DNA of 64,000 bases from a virus (taxonomy: Duplodnaviria; Caudoviricetes). Both the position numbers and the translations under genes were made by a program. Positions 10,036 to 56,112 of this stretch are shown piece by piece; position 1 is the stretch's first letter, and each line of letters starts with the position of its first letter. The notes under the pieces were generated by a model. That model saw only the letters and a program-made list of their open reading frames with translations. It had not been told where the DNA came from and ran no database searches. The DNA lies in the IMG/VR virus record IMGVR_UViG_3300020045_001587, positions 19,725 to 83,724 of that record. The stretch is one strand, 5' to 3'.

Positions 10036-11805
10036 ATGTCAGCCATTGCTGAGAAGTATGGTATTGATTTGACGCGAGATGGTAAGGTAGGTTGTCCCGG
10101 TTGCATCCGTAAGGGTGGTGATAATAGCCGGAATAACCTACAAGTGTATGGAAGTACGGAGAGCGCCCATTGCTTCGCTTGTGGCTGGACTATTGCTAGT
10201 AAAGAGCATAGGGAAGCAATGGGATGGGATGATGAGGATTATGAGGAGCTTGAAGAAGTGAGTACACGAGAAAAAATTACGGCAGAAGATAATGAGCGTA
10301 TTAAAGGTTATACAACCACTGACGGAAAAGGTTATCGTGGAATTAAAAACAGCACGAATACTTTCTTTGGTGTGCGCTATGAATTAGATGAAATCACTGG
10401 CGAAGTAGTTAAGCAGTATGTTCCTACAACTATTAGTGGGGAGCTTAGTGGCTATCGCACTCGCCGACTCCCAAAAGACTTTGCAGGACCAGTAGGCCAA
10501 GTTGGTAAAGAGTGTGATATGGTGTTTCAGTTTCGGTTCAAGACTCACACTGGCACTTGCATCATAAGTGGCGGCGAAACCAAAGCATTAAATTCTTACC
10601 AGATGCTCTATGACAATCAAGCCGCTCGTGGTAAACTTGATTACGAAACGACCGCTGTAGTTTGTTCTACTTTAGGGGAGTCTGGCGCGCACAAGCAAGT
10701 GCAAGCACAATATGAGTTCTTCAACCAGTTTAAGAAAGTTATCATCTGCATGGATGAGGATGAAGCTGGACAGAAGGCTGTTGAGCAGCTTGTTAAGGTC
10801 TTGCCTAAAGGGCGTGTATGGATCATGCGTATGCGGTATAAAGATGCGGACATCTACGTAGAAAAGAATAAACAACAGGAATTTATTCAAGACTTCTTGA
10901 AAGCCAAGAAATACGTTCCGAACGGTATTACAGCTTCTACAGACATTACTGACAAGATGCGGGAGTTTCTGAGTAAACCCCGTTTGTCCCTTCCACCATA
11001 TCTTCATAAATTACAGAAGAAGCTGCGGGGTGGGCTTCCAGTTTGTATCTTTAATATTTTGAGTGCTAGTGGTACTGGCAAGTCTACCCATGTGGATGCA
11101 ATGACTCTCCACTGGATTATGACAGCAGACAAGAAGGTTGGAATTATTCCGATGGAAACCTGCGAGGGAGAGTACGGAGTTAATCTTCTGTCCTCTTACT
11201 CACAAGTTAAGATGAATTTGTTTGAGACTGTAGAAGAACGGTTGGGATTTATTGAGCGTGAGGACATTCTTGACTTGCAACAAGAATTGTTCTATGATGC
11301 TGATGGCAATCCACGTTTCTACATCCTTGACGCCGAAGCTGAAACTTTACAAGAACGTGTAGAGTACCTAATTGTTAGCCTTGAGTGTAAAATCATCATC
11401 ATTGATCCAATTCAAGATGTATTTGACATGCTTGGAGAGGAAGAACAGGCTAAGTTTATGGGCTGGATGAAGGGCTGGATGAAGAAGGGCATCACTTTTG
11501 TGAACGTTAATCACAGCCGCAAGTCTGGTCAAGGTCAGAAGGCTAACAGCAAGGGCGCAGAGCTTTCAGAGGAAGATATGATGGGAAGTTCCACCATCTT
11601 CAAGTCTGGTGGTGTAAACTTGATCTTGATGCGAAATAAGGACGCTGAAACAGAGGAAGAACGCAACACCACTGTAATGAAGCTGAGTAAGGCTCGTGGG
11701 GTTGGTGATACAGGCATGGTAGGTAAATACTTCTATGAGATGGAAAAGCACAAACTGTGGGATTTGGAAGATTGGCAAGCACAGAACGCTCCATCTTATA
11801 TTTAA
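10036..11805 (+). CDS. DNA primase-helicase (T7 gp4-like)
   Basis: Zn finger CPGC..CFAC, TOPRIM ICMDEDEAG and KDAD, Walker A SGTGKST, Walker B IIIDP, HSRK. Confidence 0.95.
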   Translation: MSAIAEKYGIDLTRDGKVGCPGCIRKGGDNSRNNLQVYGSTESAHCFACGWTIASKEHREAMGWDDEDYEELEEVSTREKITAEDNERIKGYTTTDGKGYRGIKNSTNTFFGVRYELDEITGEVVKQYVPTTISGELSGYRTRRLPKDFAGPVGQVGKECDMVFQFRFKTHTGTCIISGGETKALNSYQMLYDNQAARGKLDYETTAVVCSTLGESGAHKQVQAQYEFFNQFKKVIICMDEDEAGQKAVEQLVKVLPKGRVWIMRMRYKDADIYVEKNKQQEFIQDFLKAKKYVPNGITASTDITDKMREFLSKPRLSLPPYLHKLQKKLRGGLPVCIFNILSASGTGKSTHVDAMTLHWIMTADKKVGIIPMETCEGEYGVNLLSSYSQVKMNLFETVEERLGFIEREDILDLQQELFYDADGNPRFYILDAEAETLQERVEYLIVSLECKIIIIDPIQDVFDMLGEEEQAKFMGWMKGWMKKGITFVNVNHSRKSGQGQKANSKGAELSEEDMMGSSTIFKSGGVNLILMRNKDAETEEERNTTVMKLSKARGVGDTGMVGKYFYEMEKHKLWDLEDWQAQNAPSYI

Positions 11806-11819
11806 ACTAAGGAGAACGA

Positions 11820-13946
11820 ATGAACGGCTGGTGTGTAGACGCGGAAGCTAATAACTTGTATTTGCAGGCTTCAAAGATTTGGTATATTCGCTTCAAGACT
11901 CTGGACGGCGTTCGTTCTCTGAGCGTCTACCCTTTCCGAGAGACTAAAGAAGAAACCTATAAGAAAGTGATGGAGTGGGTTGATAGTTTTGAGGATGGTG
12001 CTCTTGTAGTCTCTTTTAACGGATTAGGATATGACCACTTTCTTTTCTGGAAACTGTTAGGCTTAAAACCACAAGTGGGTAAGAAAGGTAAGGACTGGAT
12101 CGCGGACAAGCAAGTACAGTTTTACGATTGCTATGTATGTTCTCAATACCTTTCTCCAGACTCCCCTTTTCACTCTCTTGAGTATCTTTCTCGTGGTTCT
12201 GAGAATGAGAAGATGGCCTATCGTGAAAAACTGATTGAGCTTGGTGCTATGAAAAAGGATGATCCGAAAGGGTTTGAATTCTCCTTCTATCATCCTCTCA
12301 TGGATCAGTATTGCGACGAAGACGTTGATGCCACAATTGGCGTATTTAACCGACAGTGGCAAAAAGCTGTAGATATGTACGGAGAAGATAAATGGATTCA
12401 TCCTAGCTTTAGACAAATGCAGAAGGATTATTTCCTATACTCGGCACAAGCATATTCTGGAGCGCCATTCCATCAAGAGCGCGCAAAGAAACTTGTTGAG
12501 CATGTTAGCACAGAGATGGCAAAGATCAAGGCAGAGGTTGACCCAAAACTACCTAATCGCCCTCTAAAGACAGCAGAGCAGGCTTTCTATAAGATGCCAG
12601 CCAAACCTTATGCTAAGAATGGGGATGAAAGTGCGGCACTAAAGAAGTGGCTTGAGAAGCATAATGCAACTCTTGATAGTGAGCGGTTTGTACACGCCTA
12701 CGGAATGAAGCAGAAGCTGGTGGCGAACGATATTCTTGATATTAAGTTACCTATGGAAATTGAGGATAACCAAGAACTAAAACAGTGGTTTATTGATAAT
12801 GGCTGGGTAGCAGCTGACGGTTTTTGGAATTTCAAAAAAGACCCTGCTACAGGCAAGCCAATGCGTGATGAGGCAACAGGACAGCTTATTAAAACTACGC
12901 CTAAGATTCAGCACCAAGGACAAATCTGCCCCAACCTATTAAAACTGGAAGGTGAAATTCCTAGTAAGGTTGTGAAGTTTTTATCCTATCGTAATCGTCT
13001 AGGTGTTGTAACAGGCTGGTTGAATAACTGGAGAATGGAGTTTGATGGTAAGCTAAGTGCAGAAATTAGTGGATATGCGCCTACCTCAAGGGTAAAACAT
13101 CGTACCCTTGTAAATTGCCCGAAGGCCAGCGACAACGTTCTGTTAGGTGCAGAGATGCGGGATTTGTTCTACGCACCAGAAGGCTATTGGTACGTAGGTA
13201 CAGATGCTGCTGCGTTAGAGAATAGGACTCTCTCCCATCACACATTTAAGTATGACGGTGGAGCATTTGCGAAGATGCAGCTTGAAGGTGATCCGCATAG
13301 TTTTAATGCCTTTGCTTTCTTCCCACAACTTAGCAAGCAGTTTGATATTGACAATCCTGAGAATAAAGAGGATCATAAGTTTAAGCCGTGGCGTAACAAG
13401 GCAAAAACTGGTGCATACTTGCTGGCGTTCGGTGGTGGTGCTCCAAAATTAGCTAGTAGCTTAGGTTTGTCAAAAGCTGAAGGTAAACGAGCCTATGATA
13501 GTTATTGGGAAAAGAATGCTGGACTAGGTAAGCTGAAAGAGGCAGCAGAGAAATATTACACCACAACTGGCAAAAGTAAGTACATACCGGGAATTGATGG
13601 ACGTATGATTTCTGTACGAGGTAAGAATGTTCTGCTGTCATGTCTTGGGCAAGGCACAGGTGCTGTGGCTATGTCCTATGCAGCTTGCTTTATGGATGCA
13701 TGGCTTGGTGAGATGTACTTGGATGAGCTAGGCCGACCTTACTACAAGTATAAAGGACGCAATGTTATCAGGATTTCGATGGTCCATGATGAGTATAGTT
13801 GGTTGGTAGAAGATGGCATTCAGGAAGAAGTCCGAGTTCTTACAGAAAAAGCTATTGTAGAAGCAGGCAAATATCTTAAATTAGCCCTGCCTCTTGCAGC
13901 AGAAGGTAAGATGAGTTTTGAAGGCAGTTGGAGAGATGTACACTAA
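11820..13946 (+). CDS. polA: family A DNA polymerase with 3'-5' exonuclease
   Basis: Exo motifs DAEAN, FNGLGYD, YCDED; polymerase motifs TDAAALE, RNKAKTGAY, VHDE. Confidence 0.95.
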   Translation: MNGWCVDAEANNLYLQASKIWYIRFKTLDGVRSLSVYPFRETKEETYKKVMEWVDSFEDGALVVSFNGLGYDHFLFWKLLGLKPQVGKKGKDWIADKQVQFYDCYVCSQYLSPDSPFHSLEYLSRGSENEKMAYREKLIELGAMKKDDPKGFEFSFYHPLMDQYCDEDVDATIGVFNRQWQKAVDMYGEDKWIHPSFRQMQKDYFLYSAQAYSGAPFHQERAKKLVEHVSTEMAKIKAEVDPKLPNRPLKTAEQAFYKMPAKPYAKNGDESAALKKWLEKHNATLDSERFVHAYGMKQKLVANDILDIKLPMEIEDNQELKQWFIDNGWVAADGFWNFKKDPATGKPMRDEATGQLIKTTPKIQHQGQICPNLLKLEGEIPSKVVKFLSYRNRLGVVTGWLNNWRMEFDGKLSAEISGYAPTSRVKHRTLVNCPKASDNVLLGAEMRDLFYAPEGYWYVGTDAAALENRTLSHHTFKYDGGAFAKMQLEGDPHSFNAFAFFPQLSKQFDIDNPENKEDHKFKPWRNKAKTGAYLLAFGGGAPKLASSLGLSKAEGKRAYDSYWEKNAGLGKLKEAAEKYYTTTGKSKYIPGIDGRMISVRGKNVLLSCLGQGTGAVAMSYAACFMDAWLGEMYLDELGRPYYKYKGRNVIRISMVHDEYSWLVEDGIQEEVRVLTEKAIVEAGKYLKLALPLAAEGKMSFEGSWRDVH

Positions 13947-13960
13947 CTTAAAGTAAGCTC

Positions 13961-13989
13961 TTGACAAGAACCACAACTCGTGGTATAAT
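13961..13989 (+). promoter_or_regulatory. sigma70 promoter, 17-bp spacer, extended -10
   Basis: TTGACA-N17-TATAAT with TG at the extended -10 position. Confidence 0.85.
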
Positions 13990-14010: not shown

Positions 14011-14202
14011 ATGTCATTTGATTACCAAAGCTGTACAGTAGAAGAACTTGCCAACCATGTAGAAGCAAGTAACGCGCAACTAATCTCAACCACTCTGATT
14101 TACTACCAGAAACGTGATAACTTGGAGATGGTTGAGAAGATTAAAGAAGCCCGCAAGATTGTAAAGAAGCGAAAGCTAATTCGTCAGTTGGAGGACATAT
14201 GA
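14011..14202 (+). CDS. hypothetical protein
   Basis: SD GAGGAG directly downstream of the promoter. Confidence 0.7.
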   Translation: MSFDYQSCTVEELANHVEASNAQLISTTLIYYQKRDNLEMVEKIKEARKIVKKRKLIRQLEDI

Positions 14203-14774
14203 TTTATGAAATCAAGCCAAGTCTAAACTGGAGCGATTGGCTCTACTACGATGAGACTTCACCAAGTTGCCTTAGGTGGAAAGTAGAAATTCGTAGAGGT
14301 AAGGGCGGGGAAGTTGTTTGTGTGAGTGCTGGAGACGCAGCAGGTTTCTTAGACTCTAATAACTATTGGGTTGTTGGAGTAGACGGAGGTGTGTATAAAG
14401 GACATAGAATCGTATGGGAGCTACACAACCCTTTATTGTTGGAAGGTGAATTCATAGACCATGAGTTTGGAAATTCCACTAACAATAAGATAAGTAATCT
14501 GCGAGTTGTTGACAGGCCACGGAATCAACGTAATCGTGGTATGGGAAAGAACAACAAGACAGGCGTGGTTGGGGTGATTCTTCGTGACGATAAAGTAAAT
14601 TACCATTTCAGAGCTAAATGGCACGATTTGAATGGTAACAGGCATGAGAAAGCTTTCAATATTCGTAAATACGGATACGACGAAGCATTTAAACTAGCTT
14701 GTGAATATCGTGCTAAAATGATCGAACAATTGAATCAACAAGGTGCTGGATATACTACCCGGCACGGCACCTAA
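14199..14774 (+). CDS. HNH homing endonuclease with AP2-like C-terminus
   Basis: YKGHRIVWELH..IDHEFGNSTNNKISNLR; NNKTGVVGV..FRAKW. Confidence 0.85.
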   Translation: MIYEIKPSLNWSDWLYYDETSPSCLRWKVEIRRGKGGEVVCVSAGDAAGFLDSNNYWVVGVDGGVYKGHRIVWELHNPLLLEGEFIDHEFGNSTNNKISNLRVVDRPRNQRNRGMGKNNKTGVVGVILRDDKVNYHFRAKWHDLNGNRHEKAFNIRKYGYDEAFKLACEYRAKMIEQLNQQGAGYTTRHGT

Positions 14775-15349: not shown

Positions 15350-15679
15350 ATGACAATGAATGACACTAACGCACGAGATGAATTTGTTGAACACATTAAA
15401 GCAGTACGCTTAAAAATTAAAGCTGTTCTTATTTTTAAAGAAGACAACTGTAATGATGATGCCACAACGTATGCTTTTTTAAAAATTGGATACCGACAAG
15501 AAGACTTTAACGGTTTTCTCAATAGAATGGACTTTGAGTATGACAGTGGCTACGGCGGTCAAGAACTATACGGAACCATTTGGTATGAGGACGGTACTTG
15601 GAGTAGTCGTGGAGAGTACGATGGTAGTGAGTGGTGGGAGCACAATTCTGTGCCAATTATTCCAGAGGAATTGAAATGA
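15350..15679 (+). CDS. conserved phage hypothetical protein
   Basis: FEYDSGYGGQELYGTIW..DGTWSSRGEYDGSEWW pattern. Confidence 0.75.
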   Translation: MTMNDTNARDEFVEHIKAVRLKIKAVLIFKEDNCNDDATTYAFLKIGYRQEDFNGFLNRMDFEYDSGYGGQELYGTIWYEDGTWSSRGEYDGSEWWEHNSVPIIPEELK

Positions 15680-16040: not shown

Positions 16041-16302
16041 TGACATTCTTGACAGCGATCAATGGCAAGCACTGCTGAAAGAAATTGCACGTAAGCAGAA
16101 GCAGCTTACTAAGATGAATAATGTTGTCAATAATCTTCTCATCTTACGTGATAAGAATTGTCCACATGAAGAACTTGAACTGAAGGAACGTTATTTTAGC
16201 GGAGGCTATGATTATTGTTCATCTACAGAGTATTGGTCAGTTTGTAAATGCTGTAAGAAAACGTTTGGAAAGTACAAGGAATATCATGGTGGATACGAAT
16301 GA
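16027..16302 (+). CDS. hypothetical protein, Cys-containing C-terminus
   Basis: SD GGAGG; CPH...CKCC. Confidence 0.6.
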   Translation: MEIVNDILDSDQWQALLKEIARKQKQLTKMNNVVNNLLILRDKNCPHEELELKERYFSGGYDYCSSTEYWSVCKCCKKTFGKYKEYHGGYE

Positions 16303-16673
16303 CTCTTAAAACATTGGAGTATCAGTTATGTAAAGCTGAGTATATTGCAATTAATAATCCAGATGCTATTATTGGATTCTTTTGTACGTGGAGCGAGTTG
16401 AAGCCGTTGCTACAATCAGAGTTGTCTGGAGGAACTCTTAATACTCGCACAAGATCTATTGCATATGACAACAACGCCATGATTAGATTGATTGACGAAA
16501 GATCATTAGAGGATGCCTGTGCTGGTGCTCAGTTCACACATGTGTTCTCTAATGGTATATATGACTATAAACGAGTAGCTTACATGAGAAGTCGTATAAG
16601 AACAACCAATATATTTAATTACCCTTCTGGTTATTTTGATGAAATTGGCTTCTTGCGATATGAGGATTATTAA
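16299..16673 (+). CDS. degenerate terminase-ATPase-like small protein
   Basis: By-eye alignment to this genome's TerL; Walker A and Walker B residues absent. Confidence 0.55.
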   Translation: MTLKTLEYQLCKAEYIAINNPDAIIGFFCTWSELKPLLQSELSGGTLNTRTRSIAYDNNAMIRLIDERSLEDACAGAQFTHVFSNGIYDYKRVAYMRSRIRTTNIFNYPSGYFDEIGFLRYEDY

Positions 16674-16675
16674 TT

Positions 16676-17200
16676 GTGGAAGAACCAACTAAACGTAGGC
16701 GGGGTAGGCCGCCCCTAAAAGAATCCGAATTAAAACATCCTCGCCAGCAATGGAACAGACGCAATGTACTCAAGAGCGTTGTGAAGGCTTCTAAGCCACC
16801 TTCTAAGGCAAACAAGGCGCTCTACGGGCCTATTATTGACGAAGCTATTGCTGCTGTATTGACACAGCCTTCTCGTGCTGACAATGTGGCTAAGAAGAAC
16901 AAAATAGAAGTCACATTTCCGAAGAAGCACAAGTTTCCAGAAGGCTGGCCGATAGGTCGTATTGTAAAAGAGCTTGACGGAATGATTACGAGGACTTACA
17001 ATGCTGAGTTGGTCGTTTTGTGGGCTTATGAATATTTGTACATCCATTGGCAACCTACGGACATTTACAGAGAGCGCATGGGCATCATGGCTAACATGAG
17101 CAAGATGGAGAAAGAGTTAGAAATAATGCTTGACGAGAGTTTTGTTGTGGAATACAATGAACCTATTGAACATAACGAAAGAGAACAAAATGAAATTTGA
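16676..17200 (+). CDS. putative DNA-binding protein with AT-hook
   Basis: KRRRGRPP motif at the N-terminus. Confidence 0.55.
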   Translation: MEEPTKRRRGRPPLKESELKHPRQQWNRRNVLKSVVKASKPPSKANKALYGPIIDEAIAAVLTQPSRADNVAKKNKIEVTFPKKHKFPEGWPIGRIVKELDGMITRTYNAELVVLWAYEYLYIHWQPTDIYRERMGIMANMSKMEKELEIMLDESFVVEYNEPIEHNEREQNEI

Positions 17201-17691: not shown

Positions 17692-18225
17692 TTGTCTATG
17701 AGCGCACATAAAATCAAACTTTTGTCAGGTGGCTGTTTTGACTTCGTAGACATGGAACAGAGCAGCTATACGATAGAAGACATTGCACATAACCTGAGCC
17801 GTATTTGTCGTTTCAATGGCTCTATTGAGAAACATTACAGTGTTGCCCAGCATAGCGTTATCGTTAGCTACGTTGTACCTGAGAAGTATGCGTTGAGTGG
17901 TCTGTTACACGACATGTCGGAGAGCTTTGTAGGCGACTTGTCTAGCCCTTTGAAGCAGCTTATGAAAGAATACAAGAAGCTGGAAATCAAAGTAGAGAAA
18001 TATATGTTTGGCAAGATGGGTATTCCGTTTCCTATGCATAGCTCTATCAAGCTGGCAGACTTGCAAGTGCTGGCTGCGGAGATTCGTGACCTACAGCCAC
18101 ATGCGAGTGATTGGGCTGGGTTAGCAGAGATTGAGCCTTATGCTAAGAAGATTGTTCCTTGGAATGCTGAGAAGGCTAAGAAGGAATTCTTGAAGCGTTA
18201 TAATGAACTAACTAAGGAGAAATAA
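17692..18225 (+). CDS. HD-domain phosphohydrolase (YfdR-like 5'-deoxynucleotidase)
   Basis: IEDIAHNLSRICRFNG..YSVAQHS..LLHDMSESFVGD. Confidence 0.9.
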   Translation: MSMSAHKIKLLSGGCFDFVDMEQSSYTIEDIAHNLSRICRFNGSIEKHYSVAQHSVIVSYVVPEKYALSGLLHDMSESFVGDLSSPLKQLMKEYKKLEIKVEKYMFGKMGIPFPMHSSIKLADLQVLAAEIRDLQPHASDWAGLAEIEPYAKKIVPWNAEKAKKEFLKRYNELTKEK

Positions 18226-18704
18226 TGAATCTTCCAGAAGAATTTAAATTTAAGCACGACCCAGAAAGTGATTGGGTACACACTGCCCTATTGAAACCAG
18301 ATGGCTCTTACCATATTGTGTGGGATGAAAAGTACACTTACCCAAGTTGGAGTAACTGTAACGCTGAAGAAATTTTCTCATTTATGTCGGAAGCAGATGG
18401 TTGGGTAATTCTGTCGCAAAAAGATGTACAAATTGCTGACAAGCCTGTTGTATCTGACGGAGGATCGTCTAGCTACTATGCACTGACAATTACTAACAAA
18501 GCTGGTGACACACTGGTCTGTGAGCTAGGGGATATAATCCGGGTAGTGGTTGGAAATGACGCGGATTTATTCAACATCATTAAAGCATGCCGTAGAGCTT
18601 ACGAATCGTCACAAGGACGAGGTAAAGAAGGTGTGTCAATCGAGTATGACATGAATAAGGTTAAGTATTTCGCTGATGAATTTAAGCACTGGAATAAACA
18701 ATGA
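18225..18704 (+). CDS. DUF3310/SaV-like protein with an extra N-terminal repeat domain
   Basis: SDGGSSSYY..FNIIKACRR..GK..YDMNKVKYF. Confidence 0.55.
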   Translation: MNLPEEFKFKHDPESDWVHTALLKPDGSYHIVWDEKYTYPSWSNCNAEEIFSFMSEADGWVILSQKDVQIADKPVVSDGGSSSYYALTITNKAGDTLVCELGDIIRVVVGNDADLFNIIKACRRAYESSQGRGKEGVSIEYDMNKVKYFADEFKHWNKQ

Positions 18705-19109: not shown

Positions 19110-19138
19110 TTGACAAGCTGTTTAAATGAGCGTATAAT
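19110..19138 (+). promoter_or_regulatory. sigma70 promoter, 17-bp spacer
   Basis: Perfect TTGACA-N17-TATAAT. Confidence 0.85.
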
Positions 19139-30191: not shown

Positions 30192-30410
30192 ATGAATCTT
30201 AATGATATTGTTCCGCTGGTTGTAAAGTATTCTCCAGCGGCTAATTGTGTTTTGCAATTGCTGGGTGAACCTCAAAAGGAATTCATCCACAATAATGCTG
30301 AATGGCTCTCGCCATATATGCAAACTAAGGAAGGGCAAGAAGCTTTGCATTTATTTCTCGTAGAGTTTGCAGAGTTTGTTTTGAAGCAGAAAGCAAGAAA
30401 TGCAGGGTGA
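30192..30410 (+). CDS. hypothetical protein
   Basis: SD AAGGA. Confidence 0.6.
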   Translation: MNLNDIVPLVVKYSPAANCVLQLLGEPQKEFIHNNAEWLSPYMQTKEGQEALHLFLVEFAEFVLKQKARNAG

Positions 30411-30897
30411 AGTAATATCCCAACAAGCATTAAAAGAAATTCTTAGTTACAACCCTGATACAGGTATATTTACTTGGATAAAATCCCCTAGGCCGGGCTG
30501 GGTTAATAAAGTTGCTGGCTATTTACATGAGACATATATTGACATCTCAATAAATAGAAAAGCGTACAAAGCTCACCGTCTTGCTTGGCTGTATATCTAC
30601 GGAAACTTTCCAGACTGTGAAATTGACCATGTAAACTTAAACAGGACAGATAATAGAATCAGTAATTTAAGGTTAGCAACGGAAGAAGAACAAGCCAGTA
30701 ATAAATCAAGGTACAAGAATAATAAAAGTGGAGTGAAAGGAGTCTACAAAGATAGTAGGTATGATAAATGGATTGCTGTCATTTACAAAGATAGGCGAAG
30801 CTATTATATTGGGTCATTTGAATTACTAGAAGACGCTGCTGAAGCAATTAAGATTAAAAGGGAAGAATTACACGGCGCTTTTTGTAATCATGGGTAG
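30400..30897 (+). CDS. HNH-AP2 homing endonuclease
   Basis: LSYNPDTGIFTW..AHRLAWLY..IDHVNLNRTDNRISNLR..SGVKGV. Confidence 0.9.
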   Translation: MQGEVISQQALKEILSYNPDTGIFTWIKSPRPGWVNKVAGYLHETYIDISINRKAYKAHRLAWLYIYGNFPDCEIDHVNLNRTDNRISNLRLATEEEQASNKSRYKNNKSGVKGVYKDSRYDKWIAVIYKDRRSYYIGSFELLEDAAEAIKIKREELHGAFCNHG

Positions 30898-53961: not shown

Positions 53962-55389
53962 TTATAATTTTGGGATAGGTGATGGTTTGGAGAGGGCGGG
54001 AATGGAGAATGTGGGGATTGTTACTGTTCTTGACAACTGGTTGAAAGCTGTACTTGTTGCGTCAGCTTGGTCGTCAGAGTCACCTTTTTTGCCTGTGAAG
54101 AAACAAACCTCATCAAGCCACCAACGATTCCACTCACCTTTTACAAGTTTCACATTATTATTTGCTGCAACGCTTGCGAACGGACCAAATCGAGTCGCTT
54201 TATTAGCGTGAGGGTTCACACCATCCACCCTAGAAGATACACCATGCTCTGCTAGATATGTTGTATAGAATCTTGTAGCTACCTTGCCAGCTTGGCCGGG
54301 GTCAGTTGGAATTATCTGTACAATATCCAAACCATCTTGCCAAGCTGTCTCTTTGATCCCTTTTAGGACACCATCAATCTGCTGTTGAAACCTAACAACA
54401 TCTTCAATGTAGAATGTCCCAAATTCGTCTTTAGACATTAGCACACCAACAGTCCAGTCACATTTAAACTGATTTGCCTCATTAGGTACTGATGCTGCTA
54501 AGTCCCAGCCGCGTACTTTAGACACAGGATTTATTGGAGGGTGGTCTACAATCTCAAACATATCCTCATTTACCATTGAGCTACCTTCGACGGAAGCATA
54601 CCAAGAACCTCTGTATAATCGTAACACGTTGACACGAGGCTGACTCAATAGACGACCAACATATCCGGGGTCAGCCCTCATTAAATCTGTATTATCTGTA
54701 CACAACATAGGGATAAAGCAGAACTTCATAGGTACGAACTCAGTACCCTTCTTCAATCCATTTCCACACTTTTCGTAAAGTTCCTCAGGAGAGTCTGCCC
54801 ATTTCATATGATTGTTTTGGACAACAAAGTAACGAATCTTATCCTCTGTTCCAGGGAGTGGAACACCCTCTTGATCTAGTGAAAACTCGACCCACGGTAG
54901 CAAAAAACTTGTTTTTGATGGGTTGCAAGTAATTAGGATTGACATCTTACCTTTATACGTTGCACTACGAAGACGACTCATAATAGCCAGAATATCTTCT
55001 TGCTGAAACTCAGCACCTTCGTCTACGATGAAGTGTGTGCGTTCCCATCCCTGTACCTCATACAAGTCCCTAGGCATCGCTTTGAAGTCAATCTCAGCAC
55101 CATTTGGGAACACCCATGTTCGGGCTTGTGTCTTGTATGTAGCTCCGAAATGCGGGCAAATTTGTTTGGATGCACTAATCAAATCTTTTAGCATAGGGTA
55201 AGATAATCGCAAGATCATTACCTTTGCAGCACTATCAGAGCTAGCCCACATTGCTGCTTTTAATACTGCAAGGAAAGATTTTCCTGAGCCTGCGCCGCCA
55301 CCTGTTAGCAGTATGTCAACTTCTTTTTCTTGTAGTACAATTTTTTGTTTTATGCTTCCGGGCCTGAATACTTTACGTTCTCGTGTCAT
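53962..55389 (-). CDS. terL: terminase large subunit
   Basis: Walker A GGGAGSGKS, Walker B IVDEG, TCNP, nuclease GWDLAAS and DDQADA. Confidence 0.95.
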   Translation of the reverse strand: MTRERKVFRPGSIKQKIVLQEKEVDILLTGGGAGSGKSFLAVLKAAMWASSDSAAKVMILRLSYPMLKDLISASKQICPHFGATYKTQARTWVFPNGAEIDFKAMPRDLYEVQGWERTHFIVDEGAEFQQEDILAIMSRLRSATYKGKMSILITCNPSKTSFLLPWVEFSLDQEGVPLPGTEDKIRYFVVQNNHMKWADSPEELYEKCGNGLKKGTEFVPMKFCFIPMLCTDNTDLMRADPGYVGRLLSQPRVNVLRLYRGSWYASVEGSSMVNEDMFEIVDHPPINPVSKVRGWDLAASVPNEANQFKCDWTVGVLMSKDEFGTFYIEDVVRFQQQIDGVLKGIKETAWQDGLDIVQIIPTDPGQAGKVATRFYTTYLAEHGVSSRVDGVNPHANKATRFGPFASVAANNNVKLVKGEWNRWWLDEVCFFTGKKGDSDDQADATSTAFNQLSRTVTIPTFSIPALSKPSPIPKL

Positions 55390-55450: not shown

Positions 55451-56017
55451 CTAAATTACATCTTTATAGCTCTGCCCTATAATAACATCACTAACTACAT
55501 GATGACCTACTCCTAATTTCTTAGCTATTGCTCTACAACCATTAACTTTGCAGCCTCGTTTGTAGTTTTCTCGTATGTATCTTACCTGGTCTGCAGTTAA
55601 TTTAGCAACAGTGCTCTGTAAGCCCCTTGTCCCTTTACCCGGTATATAGTATCCAGAATTTAACATATCTTGTGAATTATCTTTATAAGTTCCCCACAAA
55701 AGGTTATTTGCACAATTATTATCTTTGTTATTGTCAATGTGACGAACAATAACTACACCATACACTGTCTTAGAACATTCTTGAATTAAATCTTCAGAAG
55801 GAGGCTCCAAAAACGCTTCAGCAACTAGCCGGTGTACTCGGAATGTATTTGCTTTAGATTTTCTTCCACTAAGCCTTGTTGTGAATATCCAGTATCCTGT
55901 CTTGTTTTTACGAGTTTTTAAAATTTTTGAACTTCTTTTTGTGTAAATACGTCCTAAGTTAGATACCATAAAATACTGTTCAAAACCTACAACGTCTTTC
56001 CAAACTTCTTCTTGCAT
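55451..56017 (-). CDS. NUMOD4-HNH homing endonuclease with C-terminal HTH
   Basis: EVWKDVVGFE.Y.VSNLGR; VHRLVAEAF; VRHIDNNKDNN..NL.W. Confidence 0.9.
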   Translation of the reverse strand: MQEEVWKDVVGFEQYFMVSNLGRIYTKRSSKILKTRKNKTGYWIFTTRLSGRKSKANTFRVHRLVAEAFLEPPSEDLIQECSKTVYGVVIVRHIDNNKDNNCANNLLWGTYKDNSQDMLNSGYYIPGKGTRGLQSTVAKLTADQVRYIRENYKRGCKVNGCRAIAKKLGVGHHVVSDVIIGQSYKDVI

Positions 56018-56112
56018 TGTAACCATCCTCATGGTTGTTATAAATCTTCTTAGAATAACAGCCTCAACAAGCGGAGGATGGCAGACGCCAAGGCTGCTAA
56101 TATAAGAAGACT

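Follow-up and report, generated by a model that had tools for sequence, protein, structure and literature searches.

The window analysed here is a 64,000-nucleotide stretch of viral DNA, bases 19725-83724 of an 83,724-bp IMG/VR virus record (IMGVR_UViG_3300020045_001587) that has direct terminal repeats and a completeness estimate of 100%. On its plus strand lies a gene for a protein of 124 amino acids, which we call mini-TerL and which, judged from profile comparisons, is a remote, truncated and catalytically dead paralogue of the ATPase core of this phage's own large terminase, TerL. A first reading, made from the letters of the DNA alone (the sequence-only reading), had placed this open reading frame (ORF) in an early or middle operon about 38 kb from terL, and this layout is correct. 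The features on which the argument depends are as follows.

13961..13989, plus strand: predicted sigma-70 promoter, a perfect match to the consensus TTGACA-17-TATAAT, with TG, heading the small-gene block; a consensus match only
16288..16293, plus strand: possible ribosome-binding site GGTGGA, purine-rich, 5 nt before the mini-TerL ATG; putative function
16299..16673, plus strand: mini-TerL gene, 124 aa; paralogue of the TerL ATPase core without a P-loop and without the Walker-B acidic pair
19110-19138, plus strand: next predicted perfect sigma-70 promoter, a 12/12 consensus match
53962..55389, minus strand: TerL (large terminase), 475 aa, Terminase_6N + Terminase_6C, about 38 kb from mini-TerL
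TerL motifs: Walker A, G30-GGAGSGKS38; Walker B, F120-IVDE124; residues 42-144 homologous to mini-TerL

The gene is tightly packed between its neighbours. Its ATG shares the tetranucleotide ATGA with the TGA stop of the upstream ORF, which suggests translational coupling with the upstream gene, and the GTG start of the downstream gene follows 2 nt past the mini-TerL stop. It belongs to a run of about 15 small plus-strand genes, extending from 14011 to approximately 19100, which is flanked on one side by genes for a primase-helicase and a family-A DNA polymerase (10036-13946) and on the other by that for an HD-domain phosphohydrolase (17692-18225), with ribonucleotide reductase farther along. 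This block of small ORFan genes is bracketed by the two 12/12 sigma-70 matches, a perfect pair that suggests transcription by unmodified host RNA polymerase in a host with a canonical sigma-70, and mini-TerL, which lies between them, is probably expressed early. The structural and packaging genes are on the minus strand, where terL adjoins genes for a Mu-type portal and an HNH/NUMOD4 endonuclease.

Similarity to the large terminase

The sequence-only reading had matched five colinear segments of the ORF by eye to TerL. All five pairs are present, and BLASTP finds the same register, aligning mini-TerL residues 44-102 with TerL residues 82-142 at 24% identity, though with an E-value of 0.72, so that the similarity is not significant pairwise. 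An exhaustive HMMER search of 1.84 billion cluster representatives yielded 14 full-length homologues of mini-TerL (124-131 aa, 29-49% identity), and comparison of the resulting family profile, using hhalign, with a TerL-family profile built from 42 TerL homologues (45-82% identity) aligned ORF residues 10-104 onto TerL residues 42-144 with Prob 96.9 and an E-value of 1.5e-10. When the comparison was repeated with three added family members, these values became Prob 97.5 and 5.6e-12, with a score of 81.2; control scores were 15-16 for reversed profiles and at most 21.4 for 100 column shuffles.

The hidden Markov model (HMM) of the mini-TerL family gave a similarly clean result. In a scan of the 2,041 ORFs of 40 aa or longer that three related genomes contain, it matched solely the mini-TerL genes and the three TerLs (E-values of 8e-7 to 5e-6, the next best being 0.19). 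It also matched 119 of 120 TerL homologues, with up to 31.6 bits against no more than 3.1 bits for reversed sequences, and in a search of raw DNA it recovered TerL in 13 of 19 related viral records. The TerLs of REC1 and PAK_P5, two Pseudomonas phages, share 38% identity with the TerL of this phage and scored 13-17 bits, and neither the HMM nor the profile matched the solved TerLs among the PDB sequences. Scores that fall with TerL distance in this way fit an origin of mini-TerL from a TerL of this phage lineage.

No family member matched a Pfam terminase model, even at an E-value of 10; searches with the single protein of Pfam, PHROGs, NCBIfam, PADLOC and the PDB sequences gave nothing meaningful; none of 50,697 phage records was matched by megablast or tblastn; and a word-indexed search of 5.8 billion proteins matched mini-TerL only to itself. 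The family profile found chance matches only among PDB sequences (ribosomal L36 and alkaline phosphatase).

Several candidate relationships were rejected. A match within the phage's own genome (G000:C1:8382-8510, minus strand, E-value 0.003, in a 213-aa ORF) was not reproduced by the family HMM and is attributed to chance, and four apparent longer homologues (P0012, P0016, P0018 and P0019) are spurious, being tandem-repeat proteins that match short motifs. Derivation from a helicase RecA2 domain is ruled out, as the HMM matches TerLs only, in genomes that also encode helicases. So is a split ATPase completed by the upstream ORF, because neither the 109-aa Cys-rich upstream protein nor the in-frame codons contain a P-loop.

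Structure prediction agrees with the profile comparisons. AlphaFold2 (AF2), given 15 mini-TerL family sequences only and no TerL in the alignment, returned a model (m9a9c0456e150) with a predicted local distance difference test (pLDDT) value of 91.1 and a predicted template modelling (pTM) score of 0.85, compared with a pLDDT of 30 from the single mini-TerL sequence. A Foldseek search of the PDB with this model listed the TerLs of D6E, T4 and Sf6 at the top (TMq 0.5-0.63), and the ESM Atlas model of the identical protein matched terminase clusters only (TM 0.72-0.79 over 120 residues). As modelled, mini-TerL has a RecA/ASCE alpha/beta core, and this can be superposed on the ATPase domains of solved TerLs. 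The terminase similarity first proposed from the sequence is thus borne out in both profile and structure searches.

The same model was used to look for proteins of similar shape. In BFVD there are many small phage proteins of 108-130 aa that share a P-loop-less, ASCE-like fold (TM 0.64-0.75 by both lengths), including proteins of the Arthrobacter phages Yavru, Kuleana and MargaretKali, Pseudomonas phage phiPMW and Mycobacterium phage Ryadel; the proteins are unannotated in several unrelated phages, and one is annotated as 'replication-associated'. The ESM Atlas contains a 115-aa cluster, 27% of whose members match Terminase_6N. Proteins like mini-TerL may, on these predicted folds, be widespread among phages.

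Losses, gains and descent of the family

The alignment with TerL shows what the small protein no longer has. The earlier observation that the P-loop glycines are gone is correct, in that the protein begins at the K-[ST] of Walker A: its start, M-T-L-K-T (M-K-[TS]-L in the family), aligns with K37-S38 at the end of the TerL GGGAGSGKS motif, and strand beta1, the glycines and the upstream adenine-binding motif are all absent. The 14 in-frame open codons before the ATG encode no P-loop and overlap the previous gene. In the HMM register, H81-V-F-S-N85-G86 of mini-TerL lies on H119-F-I-V-D123-E124 of TerL, placing N85 and G86 at the positions of the Walker-B Asp and the catalytic Glu, in agreement with the first reading. 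These columns are not conserved in the family, which has N/R/T/E/L/D at the first and G/K/D/S/R/N/E at the second, and the acids are kept only in the basal members P0014 (V-D-E), G012 (I-D-E, within WIDEY) and G011 (V-E-E, within WVEED). The lid subdomain and the RNaseH-like nuclease domain (Terminase_6C) are also missing, the latter as had been noted, and the protein, which has an 8-residue deletion before the C-motif strand relative to TerL, ends shortly past that strand. Mini-TerL is not a terminase, and it differs from TerL proper (D6E, Sf6, P74-26, HK97 and T4 gp17) in lacking beta1 with the P-loop, the lid and the nuclease, in having N-G at Walker B, in being encoded in the early region, and in a new C-terminal hairpin. 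This hairpin corresponds to the motif E-P-x-G-x-Y-D-E-x-G-V-x-R-x-E-D-Y, which is conserved in the family and has no TerL counterpart; since it follows the C-motif strand after just four residues, it may pack antiparallel in the slot of beta1.

Of the positions invariant in TerL, the family retains K44-A45, G114, R139/R141 (TerL numbering) and the N-P near the C-motif, and G76, H81 and R101 are invariant across the family itself. The Walker-B strand carries the family motif G76-x-Q-F-[ST]-H81-[VI]-F, and a second motif, S98-R99-x-R101-[ST] followed by T, corresponds to S138-R-L-R141-S of TerL, in which R139 and R141 are invariant across the TerL family.

Retention of this S-R-x-R before the C-motif strand (TerL R139/R141, mini-TerL R99/R101) speaks in favour of a role in packaging. 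In phi29-type packaging ATPases, a trans-acting arginine finger lies in the region preceding the C-motif strand, its equivalence to S-R-x-R being only a candidate one. Mini-TerL would on this account be a pseudo-subunit that binds the TerL ring interface or nuclease domain, TerS or the portal, and so restrains, times or biases the packaging of this phage's own DNA or that of a competing phage or satellite; capping or dominant-negative subunits are classically built in this way, without an ATP site of their own. However, the early region that holds the gene is separated from the packaging module by about 38 kb, the gene and terL are not transcribed together, and most complete relatives package their DNA without it. 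Prediction of a complex between full-length TerL and mini-TerL gave scores of 0.11 and 0.19 against a mark of 0.32, and carries no weight either way. We consider a packaging regulator unlikely.

Related virus records supplied three more homologues (G003, G011 and G012), bringing the number to 17, all intact, of the same length and 30-50% identical. The gene is present in only three of the 12 records of at least 90% estimated completeness (the record studied here, G000, together with G011 and G012), and the closest complete relative, G005, whose TerL is 76% identical, is without it, so mini-TerL is an accessory gene that is patchily distributed and can be dispensed with. Synteny is not kept among relatives, yet the gene is always found in the early region of replication and nucleotide metabolism. 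In G011 (L112, G011:C1:35834-39214) and G012 (L113, G012:C1:9872-13201), the homologue directly follows, with a slight overlap, a ThyX-like gene of the flavin-dependent thymidylate synthase type. A scan for related loci carrying the gene produced just two short metagenome contigs, identical to each other; in the same scan, the family alignment and single members, searched against viral and genome contigs, found nothing.

In a maximum-likelihood tree rooted on the TerL segments, the mini-TerL family is monophyletic (100/99), with the acid-retaining members forming a basal grade and the acid-less members, including the protein of the window, a derived clade (94/89); long-branch effects are a caveat to this tree. 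The simplest history compatible with the sequences would be that terL was duplicated and truncated once, after which the catalytic residues still left decayed.

Such a history could also leave a non-functional relic, a decaying fragment of the duplicated terL with a surviving open frame, and the lost catalytic motifs, the noise-level pairwise similarity to TerL and the many relatives without the gene would all be expected of one. The 17 homologues, though, keep length, start, stop and motifs undisrupted at their level of divergence, beginning and finishing at the same positions as mini-TerL. AF2 gives a confident model of a compact protein, the gene sits in a tight arrangement with an ATGA coupling, and a conserved C-terminal motif has been gained. 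A relic is, in our view, very improbable and strongly disfavoured.

Relation to Ksap2 and the TerL sensors

Among the protein patterns that bacterial STAND immunity detects (through Avs1-3 and now Upx), TerL is the best established, and the small proteins known to be read by the same sensors offer the closest comparison with mini-TerL. Ksap2 is an activator of KpAvs2 (PMC11564622), and the TerL pocket of Avs2 accepts small TerL-ATPase-like proteins such as Ksap2 and T4 vs.8, as well as TerL ATPase domains in isolation, their binding there activating the sensor (PMC11564622; bioRxiv 10.64898/2026.04.30.721860). The TerL ATPase domain by itself activates EcAvs2; Ksap1, Ksap2 and T4 vs.8 fit the TerL pocket with a smaller share of the interface; and T4 vs.8 is toxic together with EcAvs2 (bioRxiv 10.64898/2026.04.30.721860). 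EcAvs2 and SeAvs3 contact the TerL-bound ATP and the Walker site, EcAvs2 touching the nucleotide via a bridging ATP and SeAvs3 contacting the nuclease domain in addition, and SeAvs3 is not activated by Ksap1 or Ksap2; Upx is modelled as binding an unfolded TerL ATPase core (bioRxiv 10.64898/2026.04.30.721860).

Ksap2 is Bas60_220 of Escherichia phage PaulScherrer (MZ501100.1, 124604-124939, minus strand as L028:6605-6940), and its gene lies between those for ribonucleotide reductase subunits. A profile built with 12 Ksap2 homologues aligned with that of the mini-TerL family at Prob 77-83 and E-values of 2.2e-5 to 8.6e-6, over about 45 columns only, which cover a strand, A-G-x-Q-F-[ST]-x-V, a helix and [ST]-R-x-R; the score was 35.2, against 11 for the reversed profile and at most 18.6 in 100 shuffles. 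Comparison of HMM to sequence between the two gave no match, the Ksap2 profile matched the TerL profile at noise level, and the Ksap2 HMM did not match the TerL of its own phage, Bas60. There is thus moderate evidence, at the level of profiles, that the mini-TerL family links TerL and Ksap2 transitively, and Ksap2 itself may be derived from TerL, a point that its discoverers could not establish. By inspection, Ksap2 carries the A-G-x-Q-F-S-x-V strand and the T-R-x-R motif of the mini-TerL family, and it shares with TerL an R-x-R-x-Y-x-G...L-L-T stretch (SRLRSATYKGK..ILIT in TerL). The two small proteins also differ: Ksap2 has no N-terminal helix and has a different, helical C-terminus, and its binding to and activation of Avs2 are experimental results.

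T4 vs.8 resembles mini-TerL in that it is likewise a non-terminase TerL-ATPase paralogue, has its gene in an early region and lacks a known native function. Unlike mini-TerL, however, it is 219 aa long, with both Walker motifs intact (GGRQSGKS for A, IIDE for B), and hhalign detected no profile similarity between the two (Prob 0.2, E-value 0.35), so that T4 vs.8 and the mini-TerL family are probably independent derivations.

The reading that we favour, with moderate confidence, is that mini-TerL is a look-alike of the TerL core that acts by binding, the class of its partner being suggested by analogy. The gene would be a real accessory gene, probably expressed early, encoding a pseudo-ATPase that begins at the helix after the P-loop, takes in the Walker-B strand and reaches the C-motif strand, with the family-specific hairpin at its C-terminus. 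It would have arisen once, from a TerL of this phage lineage. The lid subdomain, the nuclease domain and the P-loop together with strand beta1 would have gone in the ancestor, and the Walker-B acidic pair later, in the derived clade that includes the protein of the window. Canonical binding and hydrolysis of ATP should be impossible for such a protein, which would therefore have to act through binding. Because the shape of the TerL core and the TerL-invariant surface residues G76, R99 and R101 are kept, it would be expected to engage whatever normally recognises the TerL ATPase core, the candidates being TerL sensors of the host (Avs2/Upx type) and packaging proteins of the phage itself; the immune decoy and the packaging regulator are narrower forms of this reading, each with a much lower probability. 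We prefer this reading because the protein would have no ATPase function, the core shape is kept and its nearest analogues enter the pockets of TerL sensors; by that analogy, a link to TerL-sensing immunity is plausible.

The main rival is that the TerL-derived alpha/beta core has been recruited as a scaffold with a task in host takeover that has nothing to do with TerL partners; it might, for instance, bind nucleic acid, or a protein from the nucleotide metabolism or replication machinery of host or phage. Every context in which the gene has been seen is consistent with this, since it lies among replication and nucleotide genes: here between the family-A DNA polymerase and the HD phosphohydrolase, and in G011 and G012 directly after the ThyX-like gene, much as Ksap2 sits between ribonucleotide reductase subunits. 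The C-terminal motif without a TerL counterpart, the occurrence of the same fold in the 108-130 aa proteins of unrelated phages in BFVD, one of them 'replication-associated', and the common use of P-loop-less RecA2 domains as binding modules point in the same direction. Yet no specific partner or motif does, co-location in the early region is weak evidence, and the link to Ksap2 ties this class of fold to TerL sensors; we therefore regard a repurposed scaffold as possible, but on the unlikely side.

The sequence-only reading had gone further and proposed a dead mini-terminase that could serve as a decoy or regulate packaging. Its first part, a truncated and dead TerL paralogue in an early transcription unit, is upheld by profile, HMM and fold; the second part, as far as the decoy is concerned, runs against precedent, in that Ksap2 and T4 vs.8 activate their sensors. 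As a decoy, mini-TerL would be an early, dead mimic that fills the TerL pocket of Avs1-3 or Upx-type sensors without allowing oligomerisation, and so shields the TerL made late. A true look-alike of the TerL core, in an early region behind a host-type promoter, would suit such a role, as would its patchy distribution, which is frequent for arms-race genes. Small proteins resembling the TerL core do enter the Avs2 pocket, the failure of Ksap1 and Ksap2 to activate SeAvs3 makes binding without activation conceivable for some sensors, and many anti-defence proteins are triggers of other systems. It would also be new, as none of the known anti-Avs proteins is a TerL decoy. ORF55 and ORF83 of phage DruSM1 are, like mini-TerL, phage accessory proteins, and are connected to the TerL-sensing Avs3, but they are a DNA ligase and a DprA/Smf-like protein, respectively, with unrelated folds, no mimicry of TerL and proposed mechanisms that are not decoy-based. 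Against the decoy, no analogue so far tested (Ksap2, Ksap1, T4 vs.8 and isolated TerL ATPase domains) blocks Avs2, all of them being activators, and the features that the sensors read, namely the ATP and Walker site in the case of EcAvs2 and SeAvs3 and the nuclease domain in the case of SeAvs3, are all lacking in mini-TerL. With activators as the only precedents and no positive evidence for blocking, we think an immune decoy quite improbable. We hold to be equally improbable the broader proposition that phages repeatedly carve P-loop-less look-alikes out of TerL and express them early as decoys or sponges for Avs1-3 and Upx sensors, without licensing oligomerisation, Ksap2-type triggers then being cases in which the sensor has caught up.

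Mini-TerL adds to the recently recognised small phage proteins that resemble the TerL ATPase, and is relevant both to Avs/STAND sensing and to phage pseudoenzymes. The origin and function of the non-terminase proteins that enter the sensor pocket, Ksap2 and T4 vs.8, were previously unknown, and the mini-TerL family is the clearest case so far of a small protein of this type that is a bona fide TerL derivative, given its sequence-level homology to the TerL of its own phage and its conservation as a family despite the complete loss of catalysis. The question of why phages keep TerL look-alikes, whether as decoys, packaging regulators or something else, becomes testable, and the natural series from members that keep the Walker-B acids to members without them provides material for asking what Avs-type sensors read. 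Should it prove to be no more than a repurposed scaffold, the protein is still a tidy example of pseudoenzyme evolution in a phage.

Other genes around the locus

Three HNH-type homing endonuclease genes are present in the window:

14199-14774, plus strand: HNH_3+AP2 homing endonuclease, just after the DNA polymerase
30400-30897, plus strand: HNH-type homing endonuclease, matching the same HNH ORF of the related genome G3 as the gene at 14199-14774
55451-56032, minus strand: NUMOD4+HNH_3 homing endonuclease, immediately upstream of terL

By sequence comparison, these three are mobile, because their homologues lie at differing places in the related genomes G3 and G4.

Among the small genes around mini-TerL, that at 15350-15679 (plus strand) matches phrog_3972, of unknown function, with an E-value of 5e-27. 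The gene at 18225-18704 (plus strand) matches the C-terminal part of the 423-position profile of phrog_4521, also of unknown function (E-value 7e-19), and in addition shows a weak match to a polynucleotide kinase/phosphatase family; the remaining neighbours are ORFans. One of these, the 174-aa ORFan that abuts the 3' end of mini-TerL (16676-17200, plus strand), has no family matches, and no homologues in G3 or G4. Its N-terminal K-R-R-R-G-R-P-P resembles an AT-hook, and the codons for this stretch form a GC-rich, hairpin-forming sequence (16697-16714) in AT-rich surroundings.
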